From Clostridiales bacterium (GTDB lineage: Bacteria; Bacillota; Clostridia; Christensenellales; DTU072): a stretch of 64,000 bases of DNA. The stretch covers positions 25,935-89,934 of the forward strand of contig JAAZJD010000061.1 of the NCBI GenBank assembly GCA_012800525.1, in the 5' to 3' direction. Below are positions 28,442 to 59,909 of this stretch, piece by piece (position 1 is the first letter of the stretch; every line of letters begins with the position of its first letter). Both the position numbers and the translations under genes were made by a program. The notes under the pieces are model-generated. The model made no database searches. It saw only the letters and a program-made list of their open reading frames with translations, and was not told where the DNA came from.

Positions 28442-28517
28442 TGGCAGGGGAGACGCGACTCGAACACGCAACCGGCGGTTTTGGAGACCGCTGCTCTACC
28501 AATTGAGCCACTCCCCT
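28442..28517 (-). tRNA. tRNA-Trp(CCA)
   Basis: Reverse complement AGGGGAG...GCGGT-CTCCAAA-ACCGC...GTTCGA...CTCCCCT-G-CCA; 76 nt. Confidence 0.97.
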
Positions 28518-51915: not shown

Positions 51916-52764
51916 TCATATAATTATCCAATTTAACAGTTTATTTAAAAACCTATCATAGTAATTATATGTTACTGTCCTTATAAATAACAAACTGTTT
52001 TTTGATTTAGTTATTTCTACATCTTCATTTTGATTAATTTTACATACATCTATGCCATCAACATTTAATTGAGCTTGCATTGATACTGAGTTTATGTTAA
52101 TTTTAATTACATTATTTGAGTTTGTGACTAAAGGTCTAGTATGGAGACTATGTGCAGCGATTGGCGTGATGACTAAAGCTGACACATCAGGAGCTAATAT
52201 TGGTCCTCCAGAAGATAAATTATATGCTGTAGAACCTGTTGGGGTGCTTATAATAACGCCATCAGAAGAATATTTGTCTACTAAAAAACCATTAATATAA
52301 ACACAAAATCGTCCTGCTCTTGCATCTCCTCTTGAAACAACAACATCATTAAGTCCAATGTAAACTTTTTTATTTATTTTTGCTTGAATCATAAACCTTT
52401 CATCTAAACAATAATTTTTAGACAAAATATCTTTCAAAATTTGATCTAAATCATTTGGGGGAATTTCTGTCAAAAACCCTCGGCTGCCTAAATTTAATGC
52501 CAAAATTTTTGTTTTATATTTTGAGGCAAGTTCTGCCACGCGAAGAATGGTTCCGTCGCCACCAAGTAAAACAACAACATTGCAAAGTTTAAATAAATCT
52601 TCATTGGTCAAGTATTGAGCTTTAATTCCTAAGTTTTTTAAATCATTGGATAAAAACAAATTATCATTTTCATTTTTAAGAAGATTATTAATAGAATTAC
52701 ATACTTTTTGAGTTTGTAATCCTTTTAAATCTTTTGTTAAATTCGTATAAACACCAAAATTCAC
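51916..52764 (-). CDS. nadK: NAD kinase
   Basis: GGDGT, GFLTE, ND, DGVIISTPTGSTAYNLSSGGP. Confidence 0.96.
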   Translation of the reverse strand: MNFGVYTNLTKDLKGLQTQKVCNSINNLLKNENDNLFLSNDLKNLGIKAQYLTNEDLFKLCNVVVLLGGDGTILRVAELASKYKTKILALNLGSRGFLTEIPPNDLDQILKDILSKNYCLDERFMIQAKINKKVYIGLNDVVVSRGDARAGRFCVYINGFLVDKYSSDGVIISTPTGSTAYNLSSGGPILAPDVSALVITPIAAHSLHTRPLVTNSNNVIKININSVSMQAQLNVDGIDVCKINQNEDVEITKSKNSLLFIRTVTYNYYDRFLNKLLNWIII

Positions 52765-52823: not shown

Positions 52824-53498
52824 TTATTTGTTCTCTTTTTTGTTAAAAATAGATAGAAATTTGGCAGTTTTTAAAATTATATTTTTAGATCTTTTTATAG
52901 CAAAAATTTTAACAAGCGCTTTTCCACCAACAGTAACTGCGCTGACTAAAGCAGAAAAAGCAATTGTTAGCCAAAATGTTATTTGAGCATTATTAATTTT
53001 TTTTGCTAACATTAATATAATAGAAATTGAGCATGCACCACTAATGATTCCGCATATATCACCAATGACATCGCAACAAATTGATGAAACTTTATCTGCA
53101 TTTTTAATTAACAATATGGCTATTTTTGCACCTTTTTCTTTTTTGCTAGCCATAGCATGAAATGGCTGTTCCTCGCTGGCGGTGGCTGCAACTCCTATGG
53201 CGTCTGAAATATAGTTAATTAATATCAAAATTATCAGCAATACAAACGAAACAATCAAACCTGCTTTTGATGTTGTAATTTCAGCAACAAATGAAAATAA
53301 AAAAGCTAAAAAGAATGTCAGTATTATTACAGTTAAAACCCATTTTGTAGCTTTGTGTTTTGAGTTTTTTATTTTTTTATTTTTTTGTTTTGATAAATCA
53401 ACTTCAATATTTTTAAGATTATTGATATTGTTATCAATATTTTTAGAATCTAATATATTAATGTCATCAGAATTATTTTCCAGTTTGTGATTTTTCAT
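52824..53498 (-). CDS. oapA: OLE-associated protein A (DUF21/CNNM-like TM protein)
   Basis: About 4 TM helices; DAIGVAAT...PFHAMASKK..GAK.AI.L; CCDVIGDICG (DxxxD motif); starts 17 nt after the OLE RNA 3' stem. Confidence 0.82.
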   Translation of the reverse strand: MKNHKLENNSDDINILDSKNIDNNINNLKNIEVDLSKQKNKKIKNSKHKATKWVLTVIILTFFLAFLFSFVAEITTSKAGLIVSFVLLIILILINYISDAIGVAATASEEQPFHAMASKKEKGAKIAILLIKNADKVSSICCDVIGDICGIISGACSISIILMLAKKINNAQITFWLTIAFSALVSAVTVGGKALVKIFAIKRSKNIILKTAKFLSIFNKKENK

Positions 53499-53515
53499 TA
53501 TTTAATCTCGTATAT

Positions 53516-54086
53516 AAAAGAGTGCTATAGATTAAGTAAACCTTGCTACTTAGGTTCGGTAGGATTTCCCTGCAGAACACTTGATGTCACCAAACAAGCA
53601 GTTTCCTTTAAAGTTCTACAAAACTTGATTTCTCAAAGTATAACCGAATCGCCACTTAGTACACACTATAATCCTTAATCTAAATACTGTCTAGAAAATT
53701 TCTTTGACAGATTTAATACAACCTATCCTCTTTTGCAACAATAAGTTTCATAGGCACTAGAAAAATCAAGTTCGCGGGCATGTTATTCTTGTAACCCTAA
53801 TCCTCATTATGTCACTCAAGGCAAGCTACACTGTACACAGCTAATATCACCGCATAAACAGGTTTAATCCTACTCAGCAGGTTTCCCCACCAATATAGGT
53901 CTCCACGGAAATTGGATCGGCTCAAATATGCCATTATTTGACGTCCAATATCCTTAACTCCCAGCATCAGCCCAAGTTTGGGCAACTCAAGCAAACACAA
54001 GGAACTTCATCGATATGCTCTTTGACGGTATTTTAACCCCGCCTTCAGCTGTACCTTATCTGACTAGAATACAGTAGCACTCTTTA
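53516..54086 (-). ncRNA. ole: OLE RNA (Ornate Large Extremophilic RNA), about 570 nt
   Basis: GC-elevated structured gap between xseB and oapA. Perfect 11-bp closing stem (5' AAAGAGUGCUA / 3' UAGCACUCUUU). Contains GUUCCUUGUGUUUG, CUUGGGCUGAUGCUGGGAGUUAAG and UUCCGUGGAG, which I recall as conserved OLE segments, plus a GAAA-tetraloop hairpin (53876-53891). Synteny nusB-xseA-xseB-[RNA]-oapA-nadK-argR-recN. Confidence 0.85.
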
Positions 54087-54093
54087 CAACATT

Positions 54094-54102
54094 ATTATAT
54101 CA
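54094..54102 (-). promoter_or_regulatory. Extended -10 promoter (TGnTATAAT) for OLE RNA
   Basis: Minus strand TG-A-TATAAT; predicted start about 54087, matching the 5' end of the closing stem. Confidence 0.65.
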
Positions 54103-54140
54103 TAAAACAAGATTTCTATATATTAAAGATGTGAGAGATG

Positions 54141-54344
54141 TTAATTGATTTCAAAATCGATTTTATTTAATTCTTGAGTTAAAATTTCAAGTTTACCTTT
54201 ACTTTTATTAATGCTTTCTATGCATTTTTTTGATAATGCTATAGCTTCTTCATAAATTTTTAAACTTTCATCAATGCTAGTTTGTTCATTTTCAAGTTTA
54301 TTAAGTAAATTTTCAAGCTTTTTTAAATTTGTTTCGAAATTCAT
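54141..54344 (-). CDS. xseB: Exodeoxyribonuclease VII small subunit
   Basis: FETNLKKLENL, IDESLKIYEEA; ATG 54344 after GGAGG. Confidence 0.92.
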   Translation of the reverse strand: MNFETNLKKLENLLNKLENEQTSIDESLKIYEEAIALSKKCIESINKSKGKLEILTQELNKIDFEIN

Positions 54345-54362
54345 TTTGAAAGCCTCCAAATT

Positions 54363-59366: not shown

Positions 59367-59451
<85 letters not shown>

Positions 59452-59454
59452 TAA

Positions 59455-59530
59455 TGGAGCTGGCTATCGGAATCGAACCAACAACCTGCTGATTACAAAT
59501 CAGCTGCTCTGCCTGTTGAGCTAAGCCAGC
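59455..59530 (-). tRNA. tRNA-Thr(TGT)
   Basis: GCTGGCT...GCTGA-TTTGTAA-TCAGC...AGCCAGC-T-CCA. Confidence 0.96.
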
Positions 59531-59541
59531 ATATTTGCCAT

Positions 59542-59617
59542 TGGTGCCTTGGGTCGGAATCGAACCAACGACACAGGGATTTTCAGTCCCTTGCTCTACC
59601 GACTGAGCTACCAAGGC
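59542..59617 (-). tRNA. tRNA-Phe(GAA)
   Basis: GCCTTGG...CTGAAAA loop...CCAAGGC-A-CCA. Confidence 0.96.
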
Positions 59618-59624
59618 ATTTGAT

Positions 59625-59701
59625 TGGCGATCCGGAAGGGACTCGAACCCTCGGCCTCTAGCGTGACAGGCTAGCGTTCTAACCAACTGAACTACCGGAC
59701 C
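59625..59701 (-). tRNA. tRNA-Asp(GTC)
   Basis: GGTCCGG...CTGTCAC loop...CCGGATC-G-CCA. Confidence 0.96.
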
Positions 59702-59726
59702 ATAATATTAAGTTAAAAGTTTCTTT

Positions 59727-59803
59727 TGGTGGGCCTTCACGGACTCGAACCGCGGACCAATCGGTTATGAGCCGACCGCTCTGACCAACTGAGCTAAAGG
59801 CCC
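59727..59803 (-). tRNA. tRNA with CAT anticodon, most likely Ile2 (lysidine type)
   Basis: GGGCCTTTAGCTCAG...CTCATAA...AAGGCCC-A-CCA. Paired G1 and no GGG/CCC anticodon stem, so not fMet; overall resembles Bacillota Ile2. Confidence 0.85.
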
Positions 59804-59832
59804 TCATAATCACTAAAATTAAGCGTGTATTA

Positions 59833-59909
59833 TGGTCGGGGTGAAGAGATTTGAACTCCCAGCCCCTTGGTCCCAAACCAAGTGCGCTACCAAATTGCGC
59901 CACACCCCG
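59833..59909 (-). tRNA. tRNA-Pro(TGG)
   Basis: CGGGGTG...TTTGGGA loop...CACCCCG-A-CCA. Confidence 0.96.

Follow-up and report, generated by a model that had tools for sequence, protein, structure and literature searches.

The DNA analysed is a 64,000-nt stretch (the window) of a Clostridiales bacterium (assembly GCA_012800525.1, contig JAAZJD010000061.1), the genome of which measures 1.78 Mb in 109 contigs, has a GC content of 31.7%, and is 95% complete. On the minus strand of the window, which carries all features of the locus described below, an OLE RNA gene occupies positions 53506..54096 (591 nt, the span of the match to the Rfam model RF01071), and the OLE RNA proper, counted from P1 to P1, covers 53517-54085 (569 nt). 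It is preceded directly by xseB (54141..54359) and followed by oapA (52824..53498, 224 aa), the ATG of which, at 53498, lies 18 nt after P1; nadK (51916..52764) comes directly after oapA. The usual gene order in named genomes is xseA-xseB-ispA-OLE-oapA-dxs-tlyA-nadK-argR-recN, and the order here is xseA-xseB-OLE-oapA-nadK-argR-recN, with ispA missing from its place between xseB and OLE and dxs and tlyA missing from theirs between oapA and nadK. A hidden Markov model built from 30 IspA sequences and a tblastn search for TlyA both returned no match in the 95%-complete assembly, and the Dxs-like matches in the genome turned out to be split transketolase subunits (one on a 2.5-kb contig), not Dxs. 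We conclude that ispA, dxs, and tlyA are probably absent from the genome, at an assembly completeness of 95%.

Identity of the RNA

When the whole window was scanned with Rfam, RF01071 matched the minus strand from 54096 to 53506 with a score of 388.1 bits (E 1.7e-110; gathering cut-off, 50 bits) over model positions 1-616 of 616. A preliminary description of this DNA had recognized an OLE RNA here, had proposed a search with the Rfam OLE model as a check, and had named a better match to another RNA family as the outcome that would speak against it; the significant match extends across the entire model, and no competing family was found at the locus. A genome-wide search detected a single OLE copy in the source genome. 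The other Rfam matches in the window were tRNAs elsewhere; six form a cluster on the minus strand (59370-59909), and one more lies at 28445-28517.

We note that 212 of the 249 highly conserved (upper-case) positions of the Rfam consensus are identical in this copy (85%), that G-to-A and C-to-U account for 23 of the 37 changes there, and that all 12 anchor motifs are found with 0 mismatches. Canonical pairing is kept at 132 of the 159 base pairs of the model; of the others, 9 are deleted and 18 non-canonical. In 62 pairs, both sides differ from the consensus with pairing retained. The whole RNA folds with a minimum free energy of -166.2 kcal/mol (z = -3.93), which was equalled by 0 of 100 shuffled sequences. 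The elevated GC content remarked upon previously is evident, at 0.37-0.38 over 53600-54199 compared with 0.23-0.30 in the flanks, and the view that the open reading frames of the region are spurious holds as well: two short ones (63 and 62 aa) overlap it, stop-free frames reach at most 64 aa, and relatives show no conservation of any frame. A protein-coding reading of the region was rejected on these grounds. Protein gene callers left the OLE interval empty on identical public contigs.

To this we added an alignment of the window OLE and 20 further copies taken from its family and order (21 sequences), onto which the Rfam structure was projected and to which P1, P3, and P3.1, helices without Rfam annotation, were added. 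In this alignment, 82.4% of the cells are paired, compared with 37-46% when the partners are slid by 1-3 columns, and changes on both sides are seen in 117 of 170 pairs; the helices of domain 2 (helices 18-23) are 91-99% paired. The OLE fold is thus supported by covariation across 21 sequences, and, together with the z-score of the fold, this bears out the many internal helices that had been noticed from the sequence.

Helices, loops, and binding sites

Helix names follow the text of a review (Lyon and Breaker 2025, PMC12265935), which we matched to the structure line of Rfam. The RNA is closed by P1, the 5' strand of which (AAAGAGUGCUA, 54075..54085) is a perfect 11-bp complement of its 3' strand (UAGCACUCUUU, 53517..53527); the 11-bp terminal stem had been given exactly in the preliminary description, which had set the ends of the RNA at 53516 and 54086, each one base outside it. 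As placed by the projected structure and by covariation, the 5' strands of P3 and P3.1 (CAGAU..GGUACA, 54050..54062) pair over 5 + 6 bp with the 3' strands of P3.1 and P3 (UGUAUU..AUCUG, 53708..53720). These two helices are 92-95% paired in 21 relatives, with 10 of the 11 pairs changed on both sides, and the P3/P3.1 helix is proposed to cross the membrane in the published dimer model. P4 (54024..54043; Rfam alignment and relatives) is a hairpin with the A-rich loop UUAAAAUA, and this A-rich loop is a published dimer contact. The P5/P5.1 hairpin (53952..54014; Rfam alignment) has the loop GCCCA and the flanks AUCGAUGAAG and GGGAGUUAAGG, which are the predicted strands of the OapC k-turn and are identical to the Rfam consensus; the location of the OapC k-turn is published (PMC9723947). 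The P5.1 loop has as its predicted kissing partner the loop AAUGGCAU of the P6/P6.1 hairpin (53907..53953; Rfam alignment).

P7 (53869..53899) is a 13-bp hairpin capped by a GAAA tetraloop and is shortened, measuring 31 nt compared with 44 in the model; it folds alone with -13.6 kcal/mol, and the distances between anchor motifs indicate that shorter P7 arms are found in many other lineages. P8 (53831..53861) and the long arm P9 (53727..53822) are both of normal length according to the Rfam alignment and the anchor distances. The loop of P9 carries the palindrome CGCG (53771-53778), compared with GGCC in the consensus; in relatives the loop reads GGCC, CGCG, or GCGC, every one of which is self-complementary, in agreement with the published P9-P9 kissing contact. 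The dimerization elements, i.e. the loops of P4, P5.1, P6.1, and P9, are thus all present at the level of sequence. P10 (53696..53705; Rfam alignment) is the hairpin AAA-GAAA-UUU. The small hairpin that follows P10 in the model (positions 424-434) is absent here, and it is absent family-wide, the A8-A9 distance being 18-21 nt compared with 27-33 nt in Clostridium and Bacillus.

Domain 2, from P12 to P15, covers 53526..53684 (Rfam alignment and covariation). It includes P13 (53623-53639), ACUU(U)GA-GAAA-UCAAGU, in which a single bulged U sits two pairs below the GAAA tetraloop; this is the putative OapB site, for which the published features are the P13 GNRA tetraloop and a single-nucleotide bulge (PMC7936274). 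P14.1 (53579-53599), also within domain 2, ends in a GUGA tetraloop. The GAAA tetraloop mentioned in the preliminary description is found at three places, namely the tip of P7, P10, and P13. The distal P9 stem and P13 are weak when folded alone. In two genomes of the same family and order (G013 and G027; loci L015 and L009), the tip of P13 is truncated or rebuilt at the OapB site (alignment columns 511-532); an OapB match is still found in both genomes.

Compared with full-length OLE RNAs (RF01071; Halalkalibacterium halodurans; the cryo-EM structures from Clostridium acetobutylicum and Clostridium botulinum; PMC12265935, PMC12286853), this copy has the same P1-P15 architecture and shares the dimer loops, the k-turn strands, the GNRA loops of P13 and P14.1, and the placement of oapA directly after the RNA, with oapB and a putative ybxF-type gene in the genome. 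It differs in a P7 shortened by 13 nt, in CGCG rather than GGCC as the palindrome of the P9 loop, in poor pairing of the distal part of P9, and in a gene cluster without ispA, dxs, and tlyA; like the rest of its family, it also lacks the small hairpin after P10. Further, P1 is longer here (GAGUGCUA/UAGCACUC) than the GGUGG/CCACC of those RNAs, which is also the P1 of relatives.

A predicted promoter upstream of the RNA

As the preliminary description had claimed, the RNA has an extended -10 box of its own, TGATATAAT (54102-54094), which is predicted as a promoter from the sequence and has a poor -35 element. The box (54094..54102, minus strand) ends 8 nt before P1, placing the predicted transcription start at about 54086-54089. 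Allowing up to 1 mismatch, 18 of 21 relatives have a -10 box at the same spacing upstream of P1, compared with a rate of 11% for randomly chosen positions in these loci, and a TG precedes the box in 15 of 21, including loci with 55-62% GC. A terminator scan found no intrinsic terminator between OLE and oapA. Because the position of the -10 box is conserved in relatives and no terminator precedes oapA, it is likely that the RNA has a promoter of its own from which transcription continues into oapA.

Predicted protein partners encoded in the genome

The protein encoded downstream of the RNA has four hydrophobic segments and the motifs of the OapA family: the loop FHAMASKKEKGAK, a DxxxD motif (DVIGD), and TVGGKA, which correspond to the motifs FHAMASKK-x-GAK, DVxGD, and TVGGKA conserved among homologues. 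All 17 homologous loci tested, which come from Bacillus, Clostridium, Carboxydothermus, and many metagenome-assembled genomes, have OLE directly upstream of oapA, and OapA adjoins OLE in all 28 OLE-positive relatives. We therefore identify the downstream protein as OapA, because of its motifs, its four hydrophobic segments, and the conserved adjacency to OLE; the gene had been placed immediately downstream of the RNA before, and it indeed starts 18 nt after P1 on the same strand. Its match to the CNNM domain (PF01595) is weak (E 5e-4) and falls below the cut-off, which is the published behaviour of OapA proteins. A sequence search of the PDB with OapA gave nothing relevant, and NCBIfam holds no OapA model. 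In comparison with the CNNM-domain Mg2+ transporters MpfA and CorB, OapA is alike in this weak PF01595 match and unlike in having four membrane helices and DxxxD and being without CBS or CorC domains. We note that residues 1-51 of OapA (window 53346-53498), which precede the first membrane helix, form an N-terminal extension of ~50 aa that is rich in Asn and Lys; the extension is also present in the genus mate, and homologues outside the genus do not match it.

A search of the genome with the Pfam KOW model did not detect OapB. We used as the query YbzG, which two Bacillus-type genomes encode in the interval from map to infA and which matches the OapB structure 7k9b with an E value of 7e-31. 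With this query, an intact gene of 88 aa was found between map and infA in the genome of the window; its best PDB match is 7k9b (E 6e-13 over 82 residues), and, of the contact residues, the Gly-Arg and His are aligned and Arg49 is replaced by Lys. OapB was found in 38 of 41 relatives, with or without OLE, and the presence of OapB/ybzG irrespective of OLE is the published pattern. The sole L7Ae-family gene of the genome (83 aa; PF01248, 39.7 bits) lies directly upstream of rpsL-rpsG-fusA, where ybxF has its place. Its match to YbxF structures is weak (E 2e-4); the gene position favours a protein of the YbxF/OapC type rather than of the YlxQ type. One further observation concerns a genome of the same order (G080, family f22), in which OLE was found (E 5.5e-103) and OapA gave no match at E 1e-8; a contig break or divergence of OapA might account for this.

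Size, conservation, and alternative readings

Fernando and Breaker (2024, PMC11332333) surveyed GTDB and collected 2,822 OLE copies, among which they described two reduced forms from reduced-genome gut lineages, mostly without OapB and OapC: variant 1, typical of TANB77, in which P7, P8, and P9 are short and the OapB site is often missing, and variant 2, typical of RF39, in which P7 and P8 are missing. The preliminary description had called the present RNA a compact, AT-shifted variant in an apparently streamlined genome. The genome is indeed small, and the RNA is indeed AT-shifted, its GC content of 38.6% being the lowest of the 21 copies (39 to 55% in the others), but it is not compact: relatives span 554 to 632 nt, with a median of about 596 nt, near which the 591 nt of this copy fall, and the anchor distances are normal (35 for P8, 96 for P9, and 90 for P13/P14). 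When lost and shortened helices were mapped, as had been suggested, the shortened tip of P7 and the one absent small hairpin were found and nothing else. The expectation that this copy would help to define the essential core of OLE was overstated, given a near-median span and the retention of the protein-binding and dimer elements. OLE was found in 160 of 301 genomes of the order (79 of 144 genera), and the model score of this copy ranks about 147th of the 160.

The possibility that this RNA belongs to variant 1 or 2, i.e. that it forms a minimal particle with OapA in which neither OapB nor OapC takes part, is made worth considering by the small, AT-rich genome of its uncultured Bacillota host, by the shortened P7 and the missing hairpin, and by the closest OapA proteins in named metagenome-assembled genomes, which adjoin low-scoring OLE RNAs (238-264 bits). 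It nevertheless appears most improbable: P8, P9, and P13/P14 have normal lengths, the P13 GNRA loop with its bulge and the k-turn strands are present, intact oapB and putative ybxF-type genes are found in the genome, and 38 of 41 relatives have OapB. With P7 alone shortened and the partner genes present, the RNA falls outside the definition of either variant, and we rejected this assignment. That the copy might instead be a decaying, non-functional relic drifting to AT in a shrinking genome could be argued from its having the lowest GC content and close to the lowest model score in the order, from the weakly paired distal P9, and from the repeated loss of OLE within the same order. Set against this is the strong conservation of the RNA, which is 93.1% identical to that of the genus mate, compared with 72.9% for oapA and 71.2% for the upstream genes, and thus evolves ~4 times more slowly than the flanking genes; pairing is kept in 11 of the 15 stem substitutions between the two genomes, the promoter, the oapA motifs, and the partner genes are all intact, and the sequence of the locus is identical across several independent metagenome assemblies. 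We consider decay extremely unlikely.

In a third reading, the RNA would act chiefly as a long, structured 5' leader for the control of oapA expression and not as a free-standing RNA. The spacing of 18 nt without a terminator between OLE and oapA and the single predicted promoter, upstream of OLE, are what such a leader would have, but co-transcription is compatible with a role in a ribonucleoprotein (RNP), the OLE RNA of H. halodurans is an abundant, stable RNA that binds OapA in an RNP (PMC12265935), and binding sites for trans-acting proteins are conserved here, as far as their sequences tell; a leader function as the main role is therefore very unlikely as well. Overall, we conclude, with a probability of about 0.96, that the gene encodes an OLE RNA of roughly 570 nt, of the full-length type, with AT-drifted peripheral helices, and not a reduced form. 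This copy is an ordinary full-length-type member of an already known family.

Proposed function and significance

By analogy with characterized systems, the following picture can be proposed. Transcription of the RNA, on the minus strand, would start from the extended -10 promoter of the gene itself, as sequence and comparison suggest, and would continue into oapA 18 nt downstream. By homology to the RNA of H. halodurans and to the Clostridium cryo-EM structures, this RNA is expected to fold into the two-domain OLE architecture and would dimerize through the loops of P4, P5.1/P6.1, and P9. The dimer would be tethered at the membrane by a dimer of the four-helix OapA, with P3 at or in the bilayer, while OapB would act as a chaperone at the P13 tetraloop and bulge and the YbxF/OapC-type protein at the P5 k-turn. 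By the same homology, a role in adaptation to stress is expected, involving cold, alcohols, Mg2+, and carbon source (PMC12265935). That OLE forms a stress-responsive membrane RNP which modulates an activity of the CNNM-like OapA in ion or Mg2+ homeostasis is a proposal to which we give even odds.

In itself, the finding adds one more catalogued OLE RNA and leaves knowledge of the family unchanged, since reduced forms in small-genome gut lineages have already been published. It does provide a data point, namely that an AT-drifted OLE in a 1.8-Mb genome keeps every known protein-binding and dimerization element, and that it does so in the absence of the isoprenoid genes that usually flank ole.

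OapA without OLE in the same order

In a sample of the order, OapA was found in 108 of 151 genomes, 14 of which (14/108) had no OLE anywhere in the genome; a further such genome (G017) came from the sample of relatives, bringing the total to 15 genomes of the same order. The absence of OLE was established by genome scans with normal filters and positive controls, and the regions beside oapA were also scanned. In 10 of the OLE-less genomes, from at least 5 families (G017, G034, G036, G040, G152, G072, G075, G101, G104, and G142; loci L115-L118, L124, L126-L129, and L132), oapA lies directly after ispA, with a gap of -16 to 145 nt compared with 574-856 nt when OLE is present. Five other OLE-unlinked oapA genes lie at a different locus, one of them being a second copy in a genome that carries an OLE-oapA pair as well, and one more lies at the start of a contig.

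We next compared the sequences of OLE-linked and OLE-less OapA proteins. A set of 80 OapA loci was left out of this comparison, as FHAMASKK had been among the patterns used to find them and would have biased the result, and the unbiased whole-genome sample was used instead. Of the 24 OLE-linked proteins of the order, 22 have the loop M[AS][AS][KR][KR], compared with 0 of the 16 OLE-less proteins, counts that come from related sequences and do not represent independent events, whereas DxxxD was kept in all 40 (24 OLE-linked and 16 OLE-less). This suggests that the basic loop M(A/S)(A/S)(K/R)(K/R) may be the OLE-binding surface and that OapA may retain an RNA-independent role. The broader proposition, that OLE and OapA are separable in this small-genome Clostridia order, with OLE cleanly deleted, oapA kept, and the basic loop alone decayed, seems to us about evenly poised between true and false. 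If it is true, the basic loop would be the surface on which OLE docks, and OapA would have an RNA-independent activity that OLE merely regulates; the comparison of OLE-less with OLE-linked OapA could guide the choice of residues for mapping the RNA-binding surface. The portion of the text of PMC11332333 that was searched contains no mention of such a loop pattern in OapA without OLE.

Further, we note a second OapA-like type, encoded at a different locus and preceded by an open reading frame of 460-520 aa, in G151, G058, G113, G168, and G153 (loci L135, L125, L130, L134, and L133). The genomes with this type are very small (0.8-1.5 Mb). In G151, the second OapA-like gene (L135) coexists with a normal OLE-oapA pair (L136), and, because both are found in this one genome, the second type looks like a paralogous, OLE-independent branch.
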